20,000 nt of DNA from an uncultured virus (IMG/VR IMGVR_UViG_3300011862_000002). Taxonomy: Duplodnaviria; Heunggongvirae; Uroviricota; Caudoviricetes. The position numbers and the translations under genes are program-made. Below are positions 5,116-18,998 of this stretch, one piece after another. Below the pieces are notes generated by a model, which saw only the letters and a list, made by a program, of their open reading frames with translations, did not search any database and had not been told where the DNA came from. The stretch is taken from the IMG/VR virus record IMGVR_UViG_3300011862_000002. One strand, given 5' to 3'. The first letter of the stretch is position 1, and every line of letters starts with the position of its first letter.

Positions 5116-5258
5116 TCCCTATATAGGTAGGCCCTCATATGGAGGGGTGCTTATATAGGGTGCTGTATATGGGTGCCTCTATATAGGGGTGCCTATAGCA
5201 AGGCCTCTATATAAGGCCCTCTATAGAAGGGGGTCTATATAGGGGGTGTTATATAAGC
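5116..5258. repeat. Array of about 10 degenerate quasi-palindromic units, consensus near GGGGTGCCTCTATATA
   Basis: CCCTATATAGG, CCCTCATATGGAGGG, CTTATATAGGG, CTGTATATGGG, CCTCTATATAGGGG, CCTATAG, CCTCTATATAAGG, CCCTCTATAGAAGGG, TCTATATAGG, TTATATAAG in tandem; one outlier TTATATAGGGGTG near 4855. Confidence 0.85.
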
Positions 5259-5328
5259 CGGTCTTGGCGAGGACCTTAAACTACGACATCGAGGGCGCTC
5301 ATACGCAAATTGAAAGGGGTAATTAATC

Positions 5329-8300
5329 ATGAAAACAGCAACAGCAACAGTAAACGCATTGGCAACAGAAGTAGCAGTAGCGAAAGCACGTCTTGTTGAA
5401 TTGCAAGATGCTTCAATCCGCGTTTCAAAACGCGAAAAGAAAGTCGCTAAAGCTGTCTTGCGTGTACGTCGCGCAGAGAAAGCGCTTAAGAAAGGGGTCT
5501 TGACTGTGAAAACAGCTGAGAAGAAAGAGCGACGTGCAAGCAACAAACAAGCACGTCAAACAGCCTTGGCACCGGCTCAAAAACGTGCTCGTCAACTTCT
5601 TTTGATGTTGACGCAAATGGCAGAAGTGGAAATCCCGAACTTCTTGTCACAATATAAGCTTGGTCTTCGTATCCAATTCTTCGCAAAAGCACCAAAAGCG
5701 AAGTTTGAGAAAGCGAAACCAGCAAAACAACCGAAAGGACGACTCTCTATTGCTGAGTTGTTCAAACGGTCTGGCTTGAAGAAAACGACAGGTCCGAAGA
5801 AACCGTCGTTCAACTTATCAGCCGATAACGTGAATCTTGCATTCTTCGATGCAAAAGGCAAATTCACGAGCCTTGAGCCTAAAACACTCAAGCACCTGTT
5901 GAAAACAGATGACATGAACCAGTTGACAATCGATGAGTCGGTTCAATTGTTCATGTTCCTACGTGGTTCTACACGCGTAGAAGATTCTGTCATGAACGAG
6001 AATACACTCGTTCAACGCAACAGTGAAAGTATGTTGGTCCGTGATACGGCGAAAGTCTTAACGACATTCCCTATCACAAAGAAAGACCCGTTAAACCGGG
6101 AAGATGTCATCGTCCAAGAAGTAGAAGGATATGACAACACGAAGCAACTCAACCTCAAAGTATCACTTGTGGTTGAGAAGCTGACAAACATCTTCACATC
6201 AAGCACTGTCGTCAATCAATTTGGCACAGTGTCGGAAGATGCGCTTGATGCTCTTATCAAGAACACTATCTTAAACGGTGTGCTCTTGCTTGATGAGAGT
6301 CAGAAGAAAATCAAGGTCTTTACCTTGAACAGTGCGGCTCCTTCCCAAACGCGTAAGGGAGAGGCGGCATTTTGGCAATACGGAGAGCAAGAAGGGTATG
6401 CAAACATGCATAAACTCTTGTTCAACGAAGCCGCACGTTCGCTTGCGGTGTATGGCCGCTTTGTTGCAACGTATCGTATGCATGAATACGGTAAATTGAA
6501 CAAAGCAATGAACAAACGGGTCTTCAAAATGGATAAAGACCCTAAGCGTACAGACATGCCAGCGTCTGGTTCGCGTCCATCGAATGTGATGGGCAAATTG
6601 TTCGGTCAGCTTGAAATCACAGACCGCTTCCCTTATCAAGATGATGAGAACAAAGATAAAGAGGGAATCGAGCTAACATCTGTCAATAAAATGATGGGTG
6701 GCGTTAAACGTAACATCCTTATCATCGAAGACCCTATCCATCTTGTTCGTGCGACTGCTAAGGTCGTCAACAAATTGGATGAAGCAACAGGGAAACCGGC
6801 GATTACTACTGTTACACGAGACTTCGAAAAGAACCTCGTTGACGGTGGTATCTTGGTGTCTCCTGAAATCACTCAATTCCTTGTAGCTGAAGGGATTTTG
6901 GAGCATGAAGGACAATCGTTCCAAGGACGAGGTGTCGCCGGTGTTAAACCGTTCGCATACGGTACACCAATGCTTAAAGAAGAAACAGGATATGACATGA
7001 TTCTTATGTCTGGTGCGTTGAAACTTGACGTGCTTCCTGCTTTGCTCGAAGGACGCTTCGAGTTCGCGGTCGTACAAGGGTCGCGTAAAGAGTTCAAAGA
7101 GGATATCGCGCCTGTAGCAACACAGGCTCTTTTGGCGACAGGAACGCCGAAGAAGAACCTCAAACGTCTTCACCAGATTTCAAAAGGACGCATTCAAGCA
7201 TCGTTGTTCTCTGCATCGAAAGCTTTGAAACTCCTTGGTGTTACAGACGAGTTCGATGAGTCAAAACTCGAAGAGTTAGATGCGAACGAAGAGTTCAATG
7301 ACATCATCGAAGGAGAAACAGGTGTCAAAGCCGTTCTCAAACAAGCACCACGTGCACTGAAAGATGGTGTACAGAAACAACGCCTTGCGAGTCTCTTGAC
7401 GAAATCACTTGAGAAAATCGTATTAGGTAACGTCTTGGTTGACGACGCTAAGATGCGTCATATGGGCTTTGACATCTTCATGGTGATGTCAGCGGTGAAG
7501 TCCATCAACCGTCAACGTAAAGAAGGCGTCGCAGTACCGAAGATGGAATGGGTACCGTCTATTCCAGCTGGCTGTGCAGTCGTTGTCGATGCAGATGGCA
7601 ACTTACGTGTAGGAGAGTTCATTGCCGCACGTTATCCTGCATTGAAACGCGAAGAGATTCGTAAAGTCTTCGCAACCGACAAGTTCGGCTCAGAAGAAGC
7701 ACGAGCTTACTATGAGAAAGCCGCGAAAATGGGCTTCTTCAAAGGACTCGTGTTGTTTAACTCTGTTGACATGACAACAGAGGCGATGTCAGGGGCTGAC
7801 TTCGATGGAGATACATGTCTTGTCATCTTCAACTCGTTAATGGTTCAACCATTCGAGAACAAGACACCAATCCTCGATTTCTTCATCACTGAGAGTGGTG
7901 CCATTAAAGGCGGATGCCCGTGGGCCGCACCGAAAGAAGCAGTCAACTTACGTCGCTTCGTTGATATCCCAGAAGGCCTTGAAGTCGTACAACGTACAGA
8001 CGAAAACGGTCGCACATGGGAGCTTGAATTCAACGAAGAAGATGTATTAAACCGTCCACAAGACGTGTACTATGTCTTCAACCGGATGGCGGCACTCCAC
8101 ATCGTCGAGACTTCAAAAGCATCATCAATCGGTTTGTGGACGAACCGTTTAATGAACATCGAAGACATCCAGCTTGAGATTCAAGCAGAGTACGAACTAG
8201 CTGTTCGTCTTCAGCATGCAGAGAAGCAACGTTATCTTCTTGCAGAAGGTCGTTTCTACGATGACCTCGCAACATGGTTAACGTGTGTTGTCCGTTGGGC

Positions 8301-8439
8301 AATCGATGAAGCAAAACACGGTGGTGCGTTCGCTCGTGAGTTAACACACGTGCTCAGCGTATTCACAGATGCTCCATCGCCAACGAAAGTCCGCGAAGAT
8401 ATCAAAGCAGGTATCTTCAAAATGGGTCGTATGTTCTAA
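5329..8439 (+). CDS. Single-subunit two-barrel RNA polymerase of the YonO / eukaryotic RNAi RdRP-like family
   Basis: Motifs in the order of the cellular RdRP family: DGGILVS, FQGRGVAGVK, ARYPAL, GLVLFN, MSGADFDGDTCLV (catalytic DFDGD at 7798-7812), SIGLWTN, AIDEAKHG. AAAGGGG SD. About 160-aa Lys/Ala-rich N-terminal extension. Confidence 0.9.
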   Translation: MKTATATVNALATEVAVAKARLVELQDASIRVSKREKKVAKAVLRVRRAEKALKKGVLTVKTAEKKERRASNKQARQTALAPAQKRARQLLLMLTQMAEVEIPNFLSQYKLGLRIQFFAKAPKAKFEKAKPAKQPKGRLSIAELFKRSGLKKTTGPKKPSFNLSADNVNLAFFDAKGKFTSLEPKTLKHLLKTDDMNQLTIDESVQLFMFLRGSTRVEDSVMNENTLVQRNSESMLVRDTAKVLTTFPITKKDPLNREDVIVQEVEGYDNTKQLNLKVSLVVEKLTNIFTSSTVVNQFGTVSEDALDALIKNTILNGVLLLDESQKKIKVFTLNSAAPSQTRKGEAAFWQYGEQEGYANMHKLLFNEAARSLAVYGRFVATYRMHEYGKLNKAMNKRVFKMDKDPKRTDMPASGSRPSNVMGKLFGQLEITDRFPYQDDENKDKEGIELTSVNKMMGGVKRNILIIEDPIHLVRATAKVVNKLDEATGKPAITTVTRDFEKNLVDGGILVSPEITQFLVAEGILEHEGQSFQGRGVAGVKPFAYGTPMLKEETGYDMILMSGALKLDVLPALLEGRFEFAVVQGSRKEFKEDIAPVATQALLATGTPKKNLKRLHQISKGRIQASLFSASKALKLLGVTDEFDESKLEELDANEEFNDIIEGETGVKAVLKQAPRALKDGVQKQRLASLLTKSLEKIVLGNVLVDDAKMRHMGFDIFMVMSAVKSINRQRKEGVAVPKMEWVPSIPAGCAVVVDADGNLRVGEFIAARYPALKREEIRKVFATDKFGSEEARAYYEKAAKMGFFKGLVLFNSVDMTTEAMSGADFDGDTCLVIFNSLMVQPFENKTPILDFFITESGAIKGGCPWAAPKEAVNLRRFVDIPEGLEVVQRTDENGRTWELEFNEEDVLNRPQDVYYVFNRMAALHIVETSKASSIGLWTNRLMNIEDIQLEIQAEYELAVRLQHAEKQRYLLAEGRFYDDLATWLTCVVRWAIDEAKHGGAFARELTHVLSVFTDAPSPTKVREDIKAGIFKMGRMF

Positions 8440-8564: not shown

Positions 8565-10508
8565 ATGTCTAACACTAACAACGCTAACAACACTAACACT
8601 AATGTCACTGCTGATAAGGTGTGGTCGCTCGAAGAAGCACAACAGGCAGTACAAAACATCTTCGAAAACGGAGAAGCATGGGCAGTTTCTTCTCTGGAAG
8701 CAACAACGTATCAAAATACGCAAGTGGTCTCTCCACAACGTGAACTCGTCTTACTTGCTGTTAAAGAGCTCCGTGCGAAGTTTGGTCCGTCAATGCAGTT
8801 CATCCATGGTCAAACGGAAAAAGATTTGAAGGACTTCTACAAAGCTGTTGAAGCTTTTGTAGAAGCTGGGGAAATGGAATGGCATAAGGATGTTGACTCT
8901 GATATCTTGTCATGGGAAACAGAGAAGGACGAGCTGACGTTCCAAGTATTCAAGGGGCAAGTGCGTCGTACGTCTCAGCTCGAAGTCGAGCCAAAAGAAC
9001 GTGTGACGTATCGTAACGTCTGGCAAGAGACAATGGAGCGGGTTGATTTCCATCTCTCTGTGAAAGCAGAGAAGATGCCCATCTTACGTCCAGCTTTCAT
9101 TGCTGGTCAGAAGATGGAAACGGGCGTACGCGTCGTCCGTCGTCATTCTTCTGTTCAACTCTCTACGGAGTTTGGCGGATTCGTCATTCGTGAGCTTCAG
9201 TCGATTGGGCAAACGTTCAAGCGCTCGATGAACATGCTCACAGAGTTCATGGCGCTTGAAGAGCGCCTTGAAATTCCAGAAGCAGAGAAAGAGTTGCTTC
9301 TACAACGTGGTGCTACCTTGCTGTCGTACTCGAACAACGCAATGGAGCAAATCCGTGCGTTTAAGCGTGCGATTGAGCCACGTGCGAAAGAAATGTTAGG
9401 AGAGCGTAACCTAACAAACGATGCTCAGTTCAAGTTAGACCGAGCAACAGGTAATTACACGTTCCAACAATTGAAGGAGATGCATTGCCTTCGCATCGGA
9501 CACGATGTTTGGAACAACCAGATGACAACATCTGGTAAGCGCAACGCGGCGTTGCGTAAAGCCATGACGATGGCTGAGAAAGACCGCTTGGCTATCCTAA
9601 ACCAAGACATGAACACAGAGCTCGCTTCTGTGATGCATGAATGGACGAAAGGTATTCCAAATGGGATGGTGAAGATGGCAACGCTTATGTATATCCAGCA
9701 ATACAGCATCGAGAAATCCGGGCTTGAAGGATTGTCAGTGTTCTGGAATGCATTTGAACAAGGCTTGGTCCTTGCTTTGAAAATGATGGGGGAAGAAGGC
9801 GAGCTTCCTGTTTACGTCCCATCAAGCAAACCAATCTATTTCTTGTTCGAGCCAATGCTAGGTAACATGGCATTGGTTCCAACAGCGCATGCTGAGCTGA
9901 CAGCACGTGGCATCTTGAATCAAGACATCGACATTGTAACTGTCAATGACGAAGTCGGGATTCAACTTGAATGTGGGTTCTTCCCACTTCAGAAACGAGC
10001 AGACCGTATGAAGTGGCTACCAGCCGGTCGTTCGTATGTGGCGAAAGTCACAGCCTATAACAACACTGTAAAAGCAGGTCTATCTCTTCAGCTGTCCGAC
10101 ATTCGGGCAGTTGAGGAGCCACCTGTCTTTACAGAGGAAGACATCAAGGAGAACATCGTCGATGCTCCAGTCGAAGAGCAAGACGTATGGGATGGTTTCG
10201 ATGCATCAGACGAAGGGTTTGTCTTCCCTTCTGACGAAGCTGATGCATTATTCGACACAGCTTCTGAAGACGTCGAAGAAGCGGCACCACAGCCTGTTGT
10301 TCTTGCAACAACACCGGTGATTGATGCAACGCTGAAGACGTATTCACCGGAGCAATTGCTCACTCAAGAGTTTGAGATGAAAGTCTCACCACTTGGTACG
10401 CAAGTCTATATCGTACTGGGTGGACAGAAACACCTTGCATTTACGACGGATGTTGAGTTGTCATCGCTTGACGGTATGCGTCACGATGGCATGAACTTCA
10501 TCATCTGA
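8565..10508 (+). CDS. Large hypothetical protein (647 aa), possible polymerase partner subunit
   Basis: Start moved to ATG 8565 (MSNTNNAN) behind AGGGGA SD; acidic low-complexity linker near the C-terminus; adjacent to the polymerase gene. Confidence 0.85.
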   Translation: MSNTNNANNTNTNVTADKVWSLEEAQQAVQNIFENGEAWAVSSLEATTYQNTQVVSPQRELVLLAVKELRAKFGPSMQFIHGQTEKDLKDFYKAVEAFVEAGEMEWHKDVDSDILSWETEKDELTFQVFKGQVRRTSQLEVEPKERVTYRNVWQETMERVDFHLSVKAEKMPILRPAFIAGQKMETGVRVVRRHSSVQLSTEFGGFVIRELQSIGQTFKRSMNMLTEFMALEERLEIPEAEKELLLQRGATLLSYSNNAMEQIRAFKRAIEPRAKEMLGERNLTNDAQFKLDRATGNYTFQQLKEMHCLRIGHDVWNNQMTTSGKRNAALRKAMTMAEKDRLAILNQDMNTELASVMHEWTKGIPNGMVKMATLMYIQQYSIEKSGLEGLSVFWNAFEQGLVLALKMMGEEGELPVYVPSSKPIYFLFEPMLGNMALVPTAHAELTARGILNQDIDIVTVNDEVGIQLECGFFPLQKRADRMKWLPAGRSYVAKVTAYNNTVKAGLSLQLSDIRAVEEPPVFTEEDIKENIVDAPVEEQDVWDGFDASDEGFVFPSDEADALFDTASEDVEEAAPQPVVLATTPVIDATLKTYSPEQLLTQEFEMKVSPLGTQVYIVLGGQKHLAFTTDVELSSLDGMRHDGMNFII

Positions 10509-10514
10509 TTTAGG

Positions 10515-10544
10515 AAGGCCCTCTTCGGAGGGTCTTTTGTTTTA
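10515..10544 (+). terminator. Intrinsic terminator
   Basis: AAGGCCCTC-TTCG-GAGGGTCTT then TTGTTTT; cUUCGg loop. Confidence 0.8.
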
Positions 10545-10590
10545 TCATTGTCCGTCACTCAATCCACATACAAAAAGGAGATTATTAATC

Positions 10591-11589
10591 ATGAAAATCC
10601 AAAACAAAATCAACCGTTATGCAGTCAACGCAACAGCAGTCAACTTTGAAGCACAAGTCCGTAAGATGCAAAAAGCTATTGCATTAGCAGAACAAGAATT
10701 ACAGCAAGCACATGAGACGTTTGCTGAGTTCGTCGCAACACCGATTTTACCAGAGAAGAAAGAGGTCGCTCCTTTGGTTCTCGAATTGCCTCAGACAGAG
10801 GAAGTCGCTCCTTTGGTTCTTGATTTGCCTGTTGCAGAAGAAAAAGAGGTGGCGCCGTTGGTCTTGAACTTACCAGCAGAAGAAACACCGAAGGCACGTG
10901 TTGTCGACAAGGTGAAGCAGAACATGCCACCGAAAACGGCACCGAATCCTCAGACTGGCTTCATTGCTGGTCCAGCTCAACCGGGCATTATCTTAAACAG
11001 TGCCCGTATGAGTCATAAGCACCAATCATTAGAGTACTTGGAGAAGCTACGTGTCTTCATGTACTCAGGTATTCTGAAACTTGCGGAAGCTGGCGTCCGT
11101 GAGTTACACGTAGCAGAGCTAGATGGCATTGAGTTCTTGATGCCACTCATCTGGGAGAGCGTGCTCGTTAAGTTCCCAGATATGAAGTTGGTCTTGTTCT
11201 CTAATGGCAAGAATAACTTCGAGAAGTACAAAACCGAAGAGTATGAGGAATCGTTCAAGATTCACTCTCCTTATCGGTTGCAACAACAACTACGCAAGAT
11301 TGCAACGCGCGTAGTAATGGTCGAAGGGAATGCTTTCGCTGTCCGTCGTGCGGTAGCGAAGGATACCAACGGCTATGTTCGTATCTCTCCATTTAAGATG
11401 CAGGATGCGACGACACCACTGTACAAAGGTAAGTCTCTATGTGTGCAAATCTGCCCATGGACACTTGCCGTCGAAGTCGGTGGTGGGCTTCAACGTCTCT
11501 CGAAACCGGGAGATGGCAATGATTACCGCCCGACGCACGTGAAGAAGGCGGCAGAAGGGAAACCGGTGACAGGGGCGCCGACTCATTAA
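10591..11589 (+). CDS. Hypothetical protein (332 aa): coiled coil, three EVAPLVLxLP repeats, possible degenerate SLOG/YspA-like domain
   Basis: ATG 10591 behind AAGGAG; repeats visible in the translation; GILKLAEAGVRELHVAELDGIEF...KFPDMKLVLF resembles the YspA/DUF1273 pattern. Confidence 0.8.
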   Translation: MKIQNKINRYAVNATAVNFEAQVRKMQKAIALAEQELQQAHETFAEFVATPILPEKKEVAPLVLELPQTEEVAPLVLDLPVAEEKEVAPLVLNLPAEETPKARVVDKVKQNMPPKTAPNPQTGFIAGPAQPGIILNSARMSHKHQSLEYLEKLRVFMYSGILKLAEAGVRELHVAELDGIEFLMPLIWESVLVKFPDMKLVLFSNGKNNFEKYKTEEYEESFKIHSPYRLQQQLRKIATRVVMVEGNAFAVRRAVAKDTNGYVRISPFKMQDATTPLYKGKSLCVQICPWTLAVEVGGGLQRLSKPGDGNDYRPTHVKKAAEGKPVTGAPTH

Positions 11590-11606
11590 GAGTGGGCACC
11601 CTTTTT
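11571..11606 (+). terminator. Possible terminator overlapping the stop codon
   Basis: Imperfect stem GGGGCGCCGACTC-ATTAA-GAGTGGGCACCC followed by T5. Confidence 0.45.
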
Positions 11607-11656
11607 CTATACGGTTGGCTATTGGGCCTTCGGCTAGGGGTTTTAAACCCTTACAG

Positions 11657-11672
11657 GCGGGGGCCTACGGCC
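11657..11672 (+). promoter_or_regulatory. Hairpin element copy 1 (no TGATT)
   Basis: GCGGG-GGCC-TAC-GGCC; compensatory stem variant. Confidence 0.65.
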
Positions 11673-11711
11673 ATCTTGCTTAGGTACTACAACTAGAAAG
11701 GAGTGACAACG

Positions 11712-11945
11712 ATGTCACGAGAGTTTATTGTTTCTTTATTGCGTTTGGTATTACCGTACCCGTTACACTGGTACGAAAGTAAGTCCTTGCACCAATTGAA
11801 CGGAATGTACGCGGAATACCGGGGAGCCATTTCCCGGAAACGTGTACAGTTGGCATTTGAAGCCGACGACCGCCGCTTGCAAGAGCGGTTAAAGAAAAAA
11901 CCATTCGTTCCTCCGAAAGAGGACAATGGATTGCCCTTCTTTTAG
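11712..11945 (+). CDS. Hypothetical protein (77 aa)
   Basis: ATG 11712 behind GAAAGGAG SD. Confidence 0.75.
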   Translation: MSREFIVSLLRLVLPYPLHWYESKSLHQLNGMYAEYRGAISRKRVQLAFEADDRRLQERLKKKPFVPPKEDNGLPFF

Positions 11946-11965
11946 GGCAAGTTCAAAAGCAAAAG

Positions 11966-11996
11966 GCGGGGGGCATACGCCCTTCTTTTGTTGATT
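11966..11996 (+). promoter_or_regulatory. Hairpin element copy 2
   Basis: GCGGG-GGGC-ATAC-GCCC-N9-TGATT. Confidence 0.75.
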
Positions 11997-11999
11997 CAA

Positions 12000-12253
12000 T
12001 GAGGTTGCACGAACTGATGTGCCTTCGGGTGCAGAGGTCTGTCCGCCCCTGATTGAGTTGTTTTAGAGCAAAACGGACAGACTTCCTGTTCGTACTCCTA
12101 TGTGTTGGGGGTACGAACGGTCAGGGGTCTATAAGTCCTCCAACACACATCAATTCTCTTCCTAACAGGAGGGTTGATGGAGGCACAAGCTTTACCCTTA
12201 ATTGTTAGGTCTCCCCCGTTCCACCGGGTAGGAGGGATTTAGGTGTAGTCTCG
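12000..12253 (+). ncRNA. Candidate large structured ncRNA with three pseudoknots; not assignable to a family I recognise
   Basis: Closing helix 12001-12010/12243-12252; cUUCGg hairpin 12018-12033; stems 12034-45/12074-85, 12086-98/12108-20 and 12148-58/12169-79; perfect 7-bp loop-to-downstream pairings; G-U pairs favour the plus-strand RNA; no credible ORF. Confidence 0.75.
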
Positions 12254-12262
12254 CGCAGGAGT

Positions 12263-12276
12263 GCGGGGGCTACGCC
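12263..12276 (+). promoter_or_regulatory. Hairpin element copy 3 (degenerate)
   Basis: GCGGGGGC-TAC-GCC; one G short, 3-bp stem, no TGATT. Confidence 0.45.
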
Positions 12277-12340
12277 AGTGGATATTGTGTGACCGGGGGC
12301 TTACTCACCCTCCGGCACATAGTAAATATTTAATGTTAAA

Positions 12341-12371
12341 ACGGGGGGCTACCGCCCTTCTACATATGATT
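12341..12371 (+). promoter_or_regulatory. Hairpin element copy 4
   Basis: ACGGG-GGGC-TACC-GCCC-N9-TGATT. Confidence 0.75.
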
Positions 12372-12401
12372 GATAATCTCATACTGAAGGGAATGGTTCA
12401 A

Positions 12402-12680
12402 ATGTTACAATATGATTATTCTGATGGTTTACATCGCTTGGCTCTATCTATTAATACACTGGTTGATGCCCACCGGGCAAATGCTTTAACTAATCAACAT
12501 CCTGCTCTTCTGTCTTATAAATCTGAATTACTTGTTCCCGGGTATCCTCATTTTGGGGCAATGGGAACATGGGCAATTACTGCTGTTGAATCCATGGTCG
12601 GTACACATGATGAATACGATGAATCCTATATGGACGCATGGGACGTTTACCATGGTAATCCTGTTGGTTCTTGGCGTTAA
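12402..12680 (+). CDS. Hypothetical protein (92 aa)
   Basis: Start moved to ATG 12402 (MLQYDYS) behind GAAGGGA; followed by a terminator. Confidence 0.7.
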   Translation: MLQYDYSDGLHRLALSINTLVDAHRANALTNQHPALLSYKSELLVPGYPHFGAMGTWAITAVESMVGTHDEYDESYMDAWDVYHGNPVGSWR

Positions 12681-12681
12681 T

Positions 12682-12706
12682 GGGGCCTTCGGGCTCCTTT
12701 TTTTTT
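12682..12706 (+). terminator. Intrinsic terminator
   Basis: GGGGCC-TTCG-GGCTCC followed by T9. Confidence 0.9.
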
Positions 12707-12714
12707 AATCCCGA

Positions 12715-12775
12715 ACACATCCCCAGTAGCCACACACATCCTTCGGCTATACATATCCAATTGCTATACATATCC
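12715..12775 (+). repeat. Four ACAYATCC boxes
   Basis: At 12715, 12734, 12751 and 12768 (spacing 19, 17, 17). Confidence 0.7.
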
Positions 12776-12788
12776 TTTATGATGAAGG

Positions 12789-12819
12789 GCGGGGGCCATA
12801 CGGCCTTCTGCTCTTGATT
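12789..12819 (+). promoter_or_regulatory. Hairpin element copy 5
   Basis: GCGGG-GGCC-ATAC-GGCC-N9-TGATT; lies after a strong terminator, where re-initiation would be needed. Confidence 0.75.
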
Positions 12820-12845
12820 CTAATCTATGCAAAGGGGAGATTTAC

Positions 12846-13028
12846 ATGAACATTTCTGAACTACAAGTTTTACATTCTAATGCTGGTTATTACCTTGGAC
12901 GGACATGCGAAGATGAAGTCGATGGCATGGTCTTCGATGTTCCCTATGACCGTCAGTCCGGCTACTATAAAACACAGGCACAAGCGGAGCAAGCGCTTCG
13001 GTTCGAACAACTGCATCAACAAGATTAA
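12846..13028 (+). CDS. Small phage protein (60 aa) with an SxAGYYxG...PYxRxSxYY pattern
   Basis: AAGGGGAG SD; pattern recalled from conserved phage hypothetical proteins; function unknown. Confidence 0.8.
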   Translation: MNISELQVLHSNAGYYLGRTCEDEVDGMVFDVPYDRQSGYYKTQAQAEQALRFEQLHQQD

Positions 13029-13030
13029 AA

Positions 13031-13061
13031 GCGGGGGGCTACAGCCCTCCTTTCTTTGATT
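13031..13061 (+). promoter_or_regulatory. Hairpin element copy 6
   Basis: GCGGG-GGGC-TACA-GCCC-N9-TGATT. Confidence 0.75.
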
Positions 13062-13090
13062 ACAACTTTATATGAAAAGGAGCGATTCAC

Positions 13091-13417
13091 ATGTATGAAC
13101 AAATTGAACGGGAAGTCGAAATGGACAAATTCTTCCGTCGGGGGAAATACACATCCAATGTTAACCCGGCAACTGGGGAATTCATCGAATCCCCACCTTC
13201 AGCGGATAAGCCTCACCGCTGTCATGTCATCAAACGGTTATGCCCGAAAATGACGATGAACACGGATATGGCTGTCATCACGCAAGATGTGAAGTTGGCT
13301 TATCAAGGAAAACAGTTTTGGCATACGGTTGAACTTGCAACATGCAAACGGGAAGACGTTGCTCGTGAGTATCAGAAATATGCTCAAGCGTGGCGCCTAG
13401 AGGAGGAAAGCAAATGA
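13091..13417 (+). CDS. Hypothetical protein (108 aa)
   Basis: AAAGGAG SD; coupled to the next gene. Confidence 0.8.
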   Translation: MYEQIEREVEMDKFFRRGKYTSNVNPATGEFIESPPSADKPHRCHVIKRLCPKMTMNTDMAVITQDVKLAYQGKQFWHTVELATCKREDVAREYQKYAQAWRLEEESK

Positions 13418-13593
13418 ACGACCAATTGCTTTTCTTCATGATGGCATCCATGTATCTCGTGTTTTGTGCGTACGTCGTCGGTATCGCGTATATTGCGCGG
13501 TACCTTCTGCTTCGCGATTGTTTCAAGTTAGCCTTCTCTAGTTTCTTCGTCGGTGTCGGCGGTCTTATCTTCGTTTTAAATACATTATTCTAA
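13414..13593 (+). CDS. Small membrane protein (59 aa)
   Basis: ATG 13414 behind GAGGAGG; two hydrophobic helices. Confidence 0.75.
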   Translation: MNDQLLFFMMASMYLVFCAYVVGIAYIARYLLLRDCFKLAFSSFFVGVGGLIFVLNTLF

Positions 13594-13607: not shown

Positions 13608-13793
13608 ATGAAAAAAGTTGGTAAATTATTACTTAAAGGTGCTATTCTCTATACGTTTGCGATGTATGTCGCCGCTTACTCGATTGTCCAAGAAAAACGG
13701 AAGACCGACGCTCAGATTGATGAGCTCACGAAACAGTACGAAGCACGTCAAGCTGGTTTCAAAAAAACTCTTAAACAATTGGGGGCTATCTAA
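13608..13793 (+). CDS. Small membrane-anchored coiled-coil protein (61 aa)
   Basis: AAGGGAG SD; N-terminal hydrophobic helix. Confidence 0.8.
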   Translation: MKKVGKLLLKGAILYTFAMYVAAYSIVQEKRKTDAQIDELTKQYEARQAGFKKTLKQLGAI

Positions 13794-14068
13794 TGTTATT
13801 CTATGACACGCATTCTTCTAAAATGGTAGAACGTCCGCTCGTCGAAGTTATGTTAGAAAATGGTCAGCGCGGGGTATTCGTTAATAACAATATCTCGTGC
13901 ATCAACGCTTTTGACTTTGAGAAGAAAGTCTTAAGCCAGCAATCGATTGCGGGGAATGTCGATACACGGCACACGCCTCTCGATGAAGCTGTCGTTAAAT
14001 ATAATGAAACATGCATTCCATCAAAACGTATTGTCACATTCCATATCCTAGAGGAGGCAATAGCATGA
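13793..14068 (+). CDS. Hypothetical protein (91 aa)
   Basis: TAATG coupling with the upstream gene. Confidence 0.75.
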   Translation: MLFYDTHSSKMVERPLVEVMLENGQRGVFVNNNISCINAFDFEKKVLSQQSIAGNVDTRHTPLDEAVVKYNETCIPSKRIVTFHILEEAIA

Positions 14069-14352
14069 ACCCTGTCATCCAACCAACTACTACTATCAAA
14101 CCACTTCCACATGAAGATACGACGGAGACGCGCGAATACTCTGCTATCTACGCTGATGGTGTCCGTTACGAGGGCATCACCGCGATTCGTCTCGTTACCT
14201 TCAACAACGAAGGTCAGCGTCTTTACGAAGTCTCTGTCGACCCAGAAGAAAAGGTCTTCTATAAGATTCCTTATGGGTTTGATGTTCATTATGAGCATGA
14301 AGGTAAAGACATCAACATGATGATTACGCACGCTAAGTTCAAACAATATTGA
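14065..14352 (+). CDS. Hypothetical protein (95 aa)
   Basis: ATG 14065 behind GAGGAGG; ATGA coupling. Confidence 0.8.
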   Translation: MNPVIQPTTTIKPLPHEDTTETREYSAIYADGVRYEGITAIRLVTFNNEGQRLYEVSVDPEEKVFYKIPYGFDVHYEHEGKDINMMITHAKFKQY

Positions 14353-14381: not shown

Positions 14382-14425
14382 ACACATCTCCAGTGAGAAC
14401 ACACATCCAAAAGGAGGACACATCC
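14382..14425 (+). repeat. Three ACACATCY boxes
   Basis: At 14382, 14401 and 14418 (spacing 19, 17). Confidence 0.7.
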
Positions 14426-15478: not shown

Positions 15479-15796
15479 ATGATGTCTACAGAAGCAGAAA
15501 TCTTTCGTTTTATGGCAAACGAACGGAATCTTCAGAAACAACATGAGGACGCCGTACTCAATGTAAAAATCATCAACGCCGCAGAAGAGATGATAGCGGA
15601 CTGCATGCCACGTGCCGCACGAGGCTTATACTCGCACCATATCTCATTGTCTGACTATGAATTCCTTTTCTCAAACATTCATGCTTACGATGAAGCCATT
15701 ATGGAACAATTGACCTATCGTGGGTTCACTGTCCATCAAACGCATCCCGCGCATCTTCTTATTTCATGGAAGGCAGAGGCAGGTGAAACCCCTTGA
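15479..15796 (+). CDS. Hypothetical protein (105 aa), probable paralog of the previous gene
   Basis: Start moved to ATG 15479 behind GAGGAG. Confidence 0.8.
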   Translation: MMSTEAEIFRFMANERNLQKQHEDAVLNVKIINAAEEMIADCMPRAARGLYSHHISLSDYEFLFSNIHAYDEAIMEQLTYRGFTVHQTHPAHLLISWKAEAGETP

Positions 15797-16296
15797 AAAT
15801 TGGTGTCATCGGCATGCGGATGCGGAAACACCATCCGTACTACAACCGCAACAGCCCAAAGCTTGATGATATCTGGAAGTGGCAAGAAGACATCCTCAGT
15901 GCTCTTGCACCCCAAGGACATACGTTCTTAATCGGGTGTGCGGACCACTGGGACAGTCGTGCCATGAAATGGTTATTCTATAACGGATACGCCGACCAGA
16001 TTCAGCTCATCTTACCTTTCCCGGGCTTCGGGCATAAACAGGGAGAAGATTGGCGGAAGGTGCGGGAACAACTGGAACTTCGAGGGCAAGCCCTCTATAT
16101 CCATGACAACCCGACCTCTGACCAATACCAAATGCTCAACCAACGAAACCGGACGCTCATCCATGAAAGTGACTGGATACTCTGGTTATGGGACGGAACC
16201 CAGAAAGACGCTTACAGTGGGCTCATCCTGAATAAGAAACCCGGCTATACTTTCCCGTGGAAGACCTACGTGGAAAGCCATCGCGTCACTCAATGA
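15793..16296 (+). CDS. SLOG-superfamily protein, YspA/DUF1273-like
   Basis: MKIGVIGMR start, FLIGCADHWD, LILPFPG and QRNRTLIHESDWILWLWDG match the YspA/DUF1273 pattern; TTG start behind AGGTGA. Confidence 0.75.
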   Translation: MKIGVIGMRMRKHHPYYNRNSPKLDDIWKWQEDILSALAPQGHTFLIGCADHWDSRAMKWLFYNGYADQIQLILPFPGFGHKQGEDWRKVREQLELRGQALYIHDNPTSDQYQMLNQRNRTLIHESDWILWLWDGTQKDAYSGLILNKKPGYTFPWKTYVESHRVTQ

Positions 16297-16702: not shown

Positions 16703-16806
16703 TGAAACGCAAACATCCGCATTATCACGATATCATGGAAAGTATCAGTATCGCCGTCGGCTTATTAGCGATGGCGTACTTTACTTTATCGTTCGCTTTT
16801 CATTAA
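16702..16806 (+). CDS. Small membrane peptide (34 aa)
   Basis: TGATG coupling, GGTGGTG SD; MKRKHPHYHDIMESISIAVGLLAMAYFTLSFAFH. Confidence 0.6.
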   Translation: MKRKHPHYHDIMESISIAVGLLAMAYFTLSFAFH

Positions 16807-16824
16807 GACCTTAAAACCTTAAGA

Positions 16825-16840
16825 GCGGGGGGCTACGCCC
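16825..16840 (+). promoter_or_regulatory. Hairpin element copy 9 (no TGATT)
   Basis: GCGGG-GGGC-TAC-GCCC followed by TCCTTCTTA-TAGGG. Confidence 0.7.
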
Positions 16841-16888
16841 TCCTTCTTATAGGGCTCACTACTCCCACATTAGAAAGGAAGTTATCCC

Positions 16889-17449
16889 ATGCAACTCAAC
16901 CAATTCGTACAAGAATATTATCAGCGTCCTCAGGACAAGCCTTTAATCCAACGTGTCGGTGGCATGCTCCCGGTATCGAAAACTGTCTTCAACGATGAAA
17001 TCTCGAACCTGAAAGTGGACATGGCAGGACATGCCATCCTCTTGCAACAAATTGCTTCTCACATTGGTCTTGAACTCCAAGACGTCCAGCACTCTGCTGT
17101 CGAAGTCGCCGGCATGAAACAAGAAGCCCGCAACTTCGAGAAGAAAGTCCAAGCGTATGAGCACCGGGAACACCAGTATGCGAACGGTTCTCTCTTAGAG
17201 AAGGCTCGTCGCTTCATGGGTGCAGACCCAGTCGACCCACGCTCTACGGTTAAACCCGACCAACAACCGGTCATCAACATCCAATTACCGGAAGGTCTGA
17301 CGGGTGATAACAGCATGCAAGAACGCATGGCTCGTAACGAACAAACGCTCCAAGAACTAGGCACGCAAATGGCATCATTGCTTTCTGTGCTCAATCAAAA
17401 TTTCGAAGCGAAACAAGCAGAAGCGGAAACTTCTGAAGTAAAAGCGTAA
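16889..17449 (+). CDS. Coiled-coil hypothetical protein (186 aa)
   Basis: GAAAGGA SD; Q/E-rich heptad-like segments. Confidence 0.85.
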   Translation: MQLNQFVQEYYQRPQDKPLIQRVGGMLPVSKTVFNDEISNLKVDMAGHAILLQQIASHIGLELQDVQHSAVEVAGMKQEARNFEKKVQAYEHREHQYANGSLLEKARRFMGADPVDPRSTVKPDQQPVINIQLPEGLTGDNSMQERMARNEQTLQELGTQMASLLSVLNQNFEAKQAEAETSEVKA

Positions 17450-17916: not shown

Positions 17917-17946
17917 GCGGGGGACTACGTCCTTCTTTTAATGATT
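17917..17946 (+). promoter_or_regulatory. Hairpin element copy 10
   Basis: GCGGG-GGAC-TAC-GTCC-N9-TGATT; compensatory G-C to A-T change. Confidence 0.8.
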
Positions 17947-17949
17947 ACA

Positions 17950-18010
17950 TGCCGAAACGTCGAGAGACGTCATCTACGGGTACCCTCCGTAGGTCTGATG
18001 ATGGCAGGGA
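17950..18010 (+). ncRNA. Type II hammerhead ribozyme
   Basis: TGCC-GAAA-CGTC(GAGA)GACG-TC-ATCTACGG(GTACCCT)CCGTAGGT-CTGATGA-T-GGCA-GGG: complete core (GAAA, GUC triplet, CUGAUGA), stems III, I and II paired; predicted cleavage 3' of C17971. Confidence 0.92.
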
Positions 18011-18039
18011 AAAGCGGAAAACCCTAAAACCTTTTAAAG

Positions 18040-18761: not shown

Positions 18762-18791
18762 GCGGGGGGCTACGCCCCTCTTCTTTTGATT
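18762..18791 (+). promoter_or_regulatory. Hairpin element copy 12
   Basis: GCGGG-GGGC-TAC-GCCC-N9-TGATT. Confidence 0.8.
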
Positions 18792-18813
18792 GATTCGTTA
18801 TCTCAGCGTCCTC

Positions 18814-18885
18814 AACGGAGCGGGCGTTGTCACGGCGTAAGGAGCCTTCCCCTTCTCCTTATTCCGCGACAGCGTCTGCTCTGTT
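18814..18885 (+). ncRNA. Candidate small hairpin RNA with a C/U-rich loop
   Basis: 31-position stem with two mismatches and several G-U pairs; loop CCTTCCCCTT; intergenic. Confidence 0.55.
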
Positions 18886-18911
18886 TCCATCTTTTTATGA
18901 TACATACCTAG

Positions 18912-18998
18912 ACACATCCGCGATGGCTTCCCTGTGGGACTTTTTCTAAAAAAGGAGAAACACATCCGTGATGGCTTTTCTCTAGGGATTTTTTTAAA
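18912..18998 (+). repeat. Degenerate 48-bp tandem duplication starting ACACATCCGYGATGGCTT
   Basis: ACACATCCGCGATGGCTTCCC at 18912 and ACACATCCGTGATGGCTTTTC at 18960. Confidence 0.7.

Follow-up and report, generated by a model that had tools for sequence, protein, structure and literature searches.

The window analysed here is a 20-kb stretch of DNA from an uncultured virus, in whose intergenic spaces a cassette recurs: a G-rich hairpin with a 3-4-nt loop, a pyrimidine/T run and the sequence TGATT. About ten intergenic copies were found, all on the plus strand (at 11645, 11955, 12330, 12778, 13019, 14629, 15419, 16813, 17905, 18028 and 18750, and also 8468), with a fixed spacing of 13-14 nt between hairpin loop and TGATT; two copies, at 11645 and 16813, lack TGATT. 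Between 11500 and 13100 we counted nine intrinsic-terminator-like sites against 1.6 expected, several of them being cassette copies. In some cassettes TGATT lies ~20 nt ahead of a start codon and is therefore likelier to belong to a start signal than to be a -35 box. The cassette probably joins a terminator to a start signal that is specific to this phage and serves its own polymerase.

Exactly between two of these cassettes (11955-11996 and 12343-12371) lies the subject of this study, an RNA spanning ~11997 to 12330-12360. The upstream cassette comprises a G-rich hairpin (11968-85) with a terminator-like score, a pyrimidine/T run and TGATT (11992-96); the RNA starts directly after it. This cassette probably combines the preceding gene's terminator with a start signal specific to the phage. 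The downstream cassette, also on the plus strand, consists of a hairpin (12343-60) and TGATT (12367-71). It likely marks the 3' end of the RNA; its hairpin has no T run and is absent from the list of terminator-like sites, and the transcript may therefore extend into the gene that follows, a 95-aa ORF with its own ribosome-binding site (12393-12680, plus strand).

PHROG or Pfam families were assigned to almost none of the 20 ORFs tested, and blastn comparison of the window with deposited phage records and with plasmids returned no matches. A 1036-aa ORF (5329-8439, plus strand) matched the eukaryote-type RNA-dependent RNA polymerase family PF05183 weakly and under the cut-off (E = 0.0016). The protein collection contains 14 relatives, encoded on contigs of up to 237 kb; the closest, on the 237-kb contig, is 97% identical. 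The motif GADFDGD, which we take to be the metal-binding signature shared by YonO and other two-barrel RNA polymerases, is invariant across the 15-sequence alignment. This alignment matched nothing in the PDB by sequence, and tblastn of the polymerase against phage records was likewise empty. On this evidence the protein is a candidate single-chain two-barrel (YonO/RdRP-like) RNA polymerase.

Searched against viral contigs, alone or as the 15-sequence alignment, the polymerase identified two syntenic loci, L018 (polymerase 44% identical; 26 kb, CheckV completeness 11%) and L019 (65% identical; 54 kb, completeness 23%). Together, these sizes and completeness values imply genomes of ~235 kb. Among metagenome contigs the alignment found ten loci, of which only one (L021) is close, on a contig that stops short of the RNA slot; among genome contigs it found two, both distant. 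A 682-aa neighbouring protein had no matches among viral contigs, and an alignment of a conserved 167-aa neighbour matched only the L018 contig. The 167-aa protein (15793-16296, plus strand) has a weak YpsA/SLOG match (E = 0.003) and is 64-77% identical in L018 and L019.

The genome is mosaic. The majority of the window's proteins are nearer to L019 than to L018, and those at 13793-14068, 14011-14352 and especially 15479-15796 are nearer to L018. The last, a 105-aa plus-strand protein with an empty family search, is 90% identical to its L018 counterpart and 31% to that of L019, a pattern suggestive of allelic exchange between lineages. In two of three genomes it is found together with the RNA.

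The slot that holds the RNA differs among these relatives. In L019 it is occupied, between the same flanking genes and cassettes, by an unrelated 104-aa ORF (16794-17108) rather than by the RNA; the encoded protein has no Pfam family, the ORF shows no similarity to the RNA region, and a C-terminal CxC...HxC-like motif was seen. The downstream cassette is present in L019 behind this gene (86% identical over 36 nt), and the cassette hairpin that plays the same role in L018 has another sequence, GGGCCTTCGGCC. The 95-aa downstream protein, which has no Pfam family, is 29-33% identical to its homologs in L018 and L019. Its gene occurs whether or not the RNA precedes it, and in the window, L018 and L019 alike it retains a cassette and ribosome-binding site of its own. 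Because L019 carries a protein gene in the slot and retains the downstream cassette, the RNA is exchangeable and not needed in cis, and the comparison argues for an accessory unit rather than an obligatory leader.

A conserved non-coding structured element on the plus strand

Searches with nhmmer and blastn found one full homolog of the RNA, at the syntenic site of the L018 contig. Its alignment with the window falls into three zones: a 5' end (TTGATTCAATGAGG) that is identical in both; a middle part, ~12010-12200, that is hardly alignable and in which L018 has a 15-nt insert after GAGG; and a 3' zone from 12203 to ~12340 that is ~88% identical and continues well past position 12253, where the earlier note had ended a 250-nt RNA. 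That 3' end does not stand: conservation and structure extend to ~12330, giving an RNA of ~335-365 nt. Short contigs of relatives from four runs also cover parts of the RNA, with differences; X4 carries the L018-type 5' insert, and X10 spans 12080-12179 with 13 differences. A search with three patterns from the 3' domain matched only the L018 contig, and a covariance model of that domain (R1), run over 15 sources plus the two whole viral contigs, matched the window (166 bits) and L018 (170 bits) and revealed no paralogs in that material. A 17-mer from stem 2 gave 17 loci in viral contigs; the similarity was limited to the seed in each, and these were set aside as chance matches. Sequence from 10500-13500 was present in 20 runs of 13 studies (6-21% of words), none of which is recorded as RNA.

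The conservation is not protein-coding, since all six frames contain stops in both the window and L018 (2-9 per frame) and a 1-nt indel in the most conserved part breaks the sole long frame (12261-12680). On the plus strand, 12000-12253 folded at -103.1 kcal/mol (z = -4.61; 0 of 200 shuffles as good), compared with a weaker z of -2.82 on the minus strand, and the longer segment 11997-12372 reached z = -5.52. Across the window and L018 phages the fold z-scores ranged from -3.4 to -5.8, with minimum-free-energy (MFE) folds of the middle part varying from run to run. Three of the helices, S3, S4 and Hb, contain G-U pairs that would read as A-C on the opposite strand. The earlier note had proposed a compact folded non-coding RNA with pairings between loops and downstream strands. 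A pairing check recovered every helix it named at the positions given, and the overall proposal holds up, in that known families are unmatched, no reading frame is conserved, and in L018 the stems persist along with two of the three pseudoknots. These results show a conserved non-coding structured element on the plus strand, ~335-365 nt long, with a variable pseudoknotted body and a conserved three-hairpin domain. The two full sequences lead us to conclude that it is a genuine structured RNA of the phage and represents a new family.

The conserved 3' domain folds into three hairpins. RNAalifold, applied to the window and L018, predicted 42 pairs, of which 3 show compensatory and 6 one-sided changes and none is broken (counts from a comparison of two full sequences). 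Hairpin Ha (12210-12235) has the conserved loop UUCCAC and 8 of these pairs, one of them compensatory and one changed on one side. Hb (12242-12276) has 11 + 4 bp under an apical GGAG tetraloop; among its 15 pairs there is one compensatory change (G-C to A-U) and two one-sided ones (G-U to A-U), with none broken, and it occurs in the MFE structure of both extended RNAs. Hc (12278-12329) is a long bulged stem with the invariant 9-nt loop CUUACUCAC, and contributes 19 pairs, of which 1 is compensatory, 3 are changed on one side and none is broken; its stem bulge contains a 1-nt indel. As the genome is mosaic, part of the high identity of this domain could stem from exchange between lineages.

Hb bears on the helix that had been thought to enclose the whole RNA. 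In the earlier note, P1 (12001-10/12243-52) was said to pair fully; its 10 pairs exist, and the pairing is full only when wobbles are counted, 3 of the 10 being G-U. As an enclosing helix P1 was rejected: bases 12243-52, assigned to its 3' strand, belong to the covarying hairpin Hb, and forcing the closing helix costs ~10 kcal/mol in the nested fold (-134.9 versus -145.1 kcal/mol when free). In L018 its 5' strand is broken up after GAGG by the 15-nt insert, and pairing by hand shows that a G-to-A change in its 3' strand produces a C-A mismatch; the double change from G-C to A-U that preserves Hb would break P1 in L018.

Stem-loops and pseudoknots of the 5' body

Despite its diverged sequence, the 5' body of L018 has the same helices in the same order. 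The first is a hairpin capped by cUUCGg (12018-12033), with 6 pairs in the window and 4 in L018, whose loop is identical and whose stem letters differ. It is followed by S2 (12034-12085; 12 pairs at 12034-45/12074-85), which encloses the 28-nt loop 2 and corresponds to a 9-bp stem of different sequence at 16779-87/16815-23 in L018. S3 (12086-12120) has 13-15 bp, 15 when paired as 12086-12100/12106-20, and carries loop 3; its L018 counterpart, at 16829-41/16846-58, has 13 bp and again a different sequence. S4 (12148-12179), with loop 4, has 11-13 bp (13 as 12148-60/12167-79) and is represented in L018 by 7 bp around a 20-nt loop (16895-901/16922-28).

The loops of these three stems each have a Watson-Crick partner downstream. 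For PK1, loop 2 (12046-52) forms 7 pairs with UCAGGGG after S3 (12121-12127); for PK2, loop 3 (12101-08) forms 8 pairs with CCAACACA (12140-12147), which abuts S4; and for PK3, loop 4 (12161-67) forms 7 pairs with UGUUAGG (12203-12209), which abuts Ha. In L018 the equivalent places of PK2 read UGUCCA/UGGACA (16841-46/16890-95), and those of PK3 read CCUGAUGC/GCAUCAGG (16909-16/16948-55). Only CCU/AGG is common to the two versions of PK3, the other 4-5 pairs being changed on both sides.

Perfect complements of at least 6 bases are frequent in RNAs of this size: the window RNA contains 25 such helices and its L018 counterpart 20. A lone 7-mer therefore proves little, and position and conservation must carry the significance. 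In anchored shuffles, run for 50000 rounds, the loop was shuffled while its 3' partner had to lie within the 10 bases flanking the next helix. The observed length was reached for PK2 in 405 rounds for the window and 190 for L018, and for PK3 in 41 and 40; for PK1 the figures were 31 of 50000 in the window and 7215 of 50000 in L018. We also tabulated, for each hairpin loop, its longest Watson-Crick match within the 10 bases flanking every later helix. The same diagonal stood out in both RNAs: loop 2 with the strand after S3 (7 in the window, 5 in L018), loop 3 with the strand before S4 (8 and 6) and loop 4 with the strand before Ha (7 and 8). Off-diagonal values were mostly at most 4 and never above 5, the one exception being the match of loop 2 to the 5' end.

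Two of the three pairings that the earlier note had read from the window are thus borne out in the second phage: PK2 and PK3 are perfect in the window, recur with other letters at the equivalent places of L018 and are supported across species by this sequence comparison. Both show the pattern of an H-type pseudoknot, a loop that pairs with a strand outside it and is kept by covariation. For PK1 the 7 perfect pairs of the window were confirmed, and the pairing in L018 is weak (5 bp); clear conservation of PK1 is not supported by the two sequences. Complementarity read by eye can hence find real tertiary pairings, two of three having survived the cross-species test.

The exception in the table involves the invariant 5' end, UCAAUGAGG (11996-12004), which is complementary to the 5' part of loop 2. 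This pairing, PK0, has 9 of 9 Watson-Crick pairs in L018 (16726-34/16789-97) and 8 of 9 in the window, with one G-G mismatch (11996-12004/12048-56). The loose end of the short contig X10, a third variant, reads CTCATTGG and resembles L018. In L018 PK1 conflicts both with PK0 and with 6 bp by which its 3' strand can extend S3 locally. By complementarity, then, loop 2 has two mutually exclusive potential partners, the 5' end (PK0) and the strand after S3 (PK1).

Relation to known RNAs and possible roles

The Rfam scan recommended for this locus gave no match at the gathering score for any of 4,227 families over the whole window, in line with the earlier description of the RNA as unrecognized. 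When E values up to 10 were admitted for 11500-12800, six weak matches appeared, none covering the RNA credibly; the only one inside its body, SCARNA11, scored 14.1 bits where the gathering score is 37. We take Rfam 15 to include pRNA, ROOL, GOLLD, HEARO, OLE, raiA, 6S, RNase P, SRP, T-box and ribozyme families. The reported absence of tmRNA, RNase P and SRP signatures was also upheld: ARAGORN found no tRNA or tmRNA genes in the 20-kb window, Rfam gave no tmRNA family even at E up to 10, and neither RNase P nor SRP was matched in the Rfam 15 scan. Nothing on this RNA was found in the titles and abstract openings surveyed. We rate it, from sequence comparisons, as a new family within a known kind, the phage-encoded structured RNAs. 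To our knowledge, phage-encoded structured RNAs this large are rare, and the few large ones known (pRNA, ROOL and GOLLD) have unusual architectures.

Among established systems, tmRNA resembles this RNA in size (~350 nt), in its consecutive H-type pseudoknots of variable sequence and in having a conserved terminal domain; by inspection, however, our RNA has no acceptor stem joining its ends, no CCA end and no tag frame. Like the pRNA of the phi29 family it is a structured, putatively stand-alone RNA encoded by a phage, and in pRNA, too, loop pairings covary while the primary sequence drifts. It differs from pRNA in being about twice the size, in lacking an Rfam match, in having pairings that fit intramolecular pseudoknots and in belonging to a phage with a ~235-kb genome and, putatively, its own two-barrel polymerase. 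ROOL and GOLLD are structured RNAs of roughly 600-800 nt with many pseudoknots, carried by phages and prophages; the present RNA shares phage carriage and a structured, multi-pseudoknot fold with them, but is smaller, has no Rfam match and has no tRNA genes nearby. Finally, the put RNAs of phage HK022 are ~70-nt elements of two hairpins that act in cis on the host polymerase. Our RNA resembles them in being encoded directly after a probable phage promoter, in a genome rich in terminator-like hairpins; it differs in being five times larger and in being missing from the equivalent place of L019.

Our leading reading, to which we give slightly less than an even chance, is a stand-alone plus-strand non-coding RNA gene of ~335-365 nt that occupies a phage cassette slot and whose role in trans we infer. 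The RNA would be transcribed from the upstream cassette. Its 5' body, the UUCG hairpin and the three long stem-loops, would be the fast-evolving part, in which loops 3 and 4 would pair with the strand just ahead of the next helix to give stacked H-type pseudoknots and the partner of loop 2 would be either the invariant 5' end or the strand after S3. The slow-evolving 3' domain, with its three hairpins and the invariant loops UUCCAC, GGAG and CUUACUCAC, would be the surface that binds a phage or host partner, protein or RNA, and the pseudoknotted body may serve as a compact nuclease-resistant scaffold. The likeliest roles would be those of a binding or decoy RNA in counter-defence or host take-over.

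The chief alternative is that the RNA is the 5' leader of the 95-aa gene at 12393-12680 and that its structure controls read-through or translation in cis. The hairpin at 12343-60, with no T run and not scored as a terminator, would allow this, as would the cassette behind the RNA in L018, which has neither TGATT nor a T run, and the two exclusive partners of loop 2 look switch-like. We nevertheless consider a cis leader unlikely: L019 has the downstream gene and its cassette behind a protein gene without the RNA, the downstream protein is only 29-33% identical while the RNA 3' domain is ~88%, and riboswitch, T-box and leader families were unmatched in Rfam. That the element does not function as RNA at all, and instead reflects DNA-level signals such as protein-binding sites or promoters, or recent recombination, with its complementarities arising by chance, seems quite improbable to us. 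Such an origin would suit the frequency of perfect complements of at least 6 bases and the mosaic genome, in which the 3' domain may be exchanged DNA as the gene at 15479-15796 appears to be (90% identity to L018 versus 31% to L019). It would leave unexplained that the differences in the 3' domain keep 42 of 42 predicted pairs intact, that the middle part is unalignable yet has the same stems and loop-flank partners, and that the fold z-scores lie between -3.4 and -5.8 in both phages.

Two further alternatives accept a functional RNA and concern how it works. The loops could pair between molecules and so assemble the RNA into dimers, or into bigger rings or cages like those of phi29 pRNA or ROOL/GOLLD; they do match distant single strands and the pairings covary, as intermolecular loops of pRNA do. 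When linkers were counted by hand, though, PK2 and PK3 looked sterically like ordinary H-type pseudoknots (L1 of 2 nt, L2 of 0-1 nt, L3 of ~20 nt), and the pRNA, ROOL and GOLLD models were unmatched in the Rfam scan, which makes an intermolecular arrangement very doubtful. Less probable still is a ribozyme, self-cleaving or otherwise catalytic: the compact multi-pseudoknot fold with invariant loops and junctions would be in keeping with one, but no known ribozyme family was matched at E up to 10 and we recognized no catalytic-core motif.

Returning to the stand-alone RNA acting in trans, we also considered a broader proposal, which we regard as rather unlikely, namely that the RNA represents a new class of jumbo-phage RNAs that combine a factor-binding three-hairpin head, a rigid pseudoknot body, a loop-2 switch and an exchangeable cassette. 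Candidate partners of the head, from host or phage, would include the ribosome, a defence protein and the phage's own YonO-like polymerase; by changing its pairing from the 5' end to the strand after S3 and back, loop 2 would act as a built-in conformational switch; and the RNA would be carried as an accessory cassette, by analogy with anti-defence genes. The RNA comes from an unstudied giant-phage lineage with a candidate single-chain two-barrel polymerase, in a slot that holds a protein gene in a relative. Were a binding or decoy role true, an RNA-based tool would be added to those of phage host take-over or counter-defence, and structural biologists would gain a small natural RNA of stacked pseudoknots.

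Other elements of the window

Complements of at least 10 bases elsewhere in the window or L018, as candidate antisense targets of the RNA, included none common to both phages. A 15-nt exact inverted repeat links 12150-12164, in the S4 5' strand and loop, with 705-719 inside the minus-strand gene at 1-822. It was discarded as an antisense target; the RNA has the same sense as the mRNA of that gene, and the repeat is absent from L018.

The intergenic motif ACAYATCC occurs in nine copies, all on the plus strand, against 1.06 expected (12715-12775, 13149, 14401-14425 and 18912-18967). The copies are often 17-19 nt apart and lie behind a GGGCCTTCGGGCTC terminator and ahead of a ribosome-binding site, an arrangement also seen in L018 (19549-19630). 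A link between this motif and Hc was rejected, nine of nine plus-strand copies lying outside the RNA and none within it. Directly upstream of the polymerase gene, 5138-5259 is a tandem array of about eight 14-nt units resembling TATATAGGGGTGCC, to which CTCTATAG motifs at 2867-2890 are related.

Two ORF-less units accompany cassettes near the end of the window. One, of ~85 nt (17943-18030, plus strand), lies between two cassettes that are 123 nt apart and folds no better than its shuffles (z = -1.3). The other, directly after a cassette at 18788-18935 (plus strand), is a near-perfect long hairpin of ~72 nt with a fold z-score of -5.5 (0 of 200 shuffles as good), and is possibly another RNA unit.
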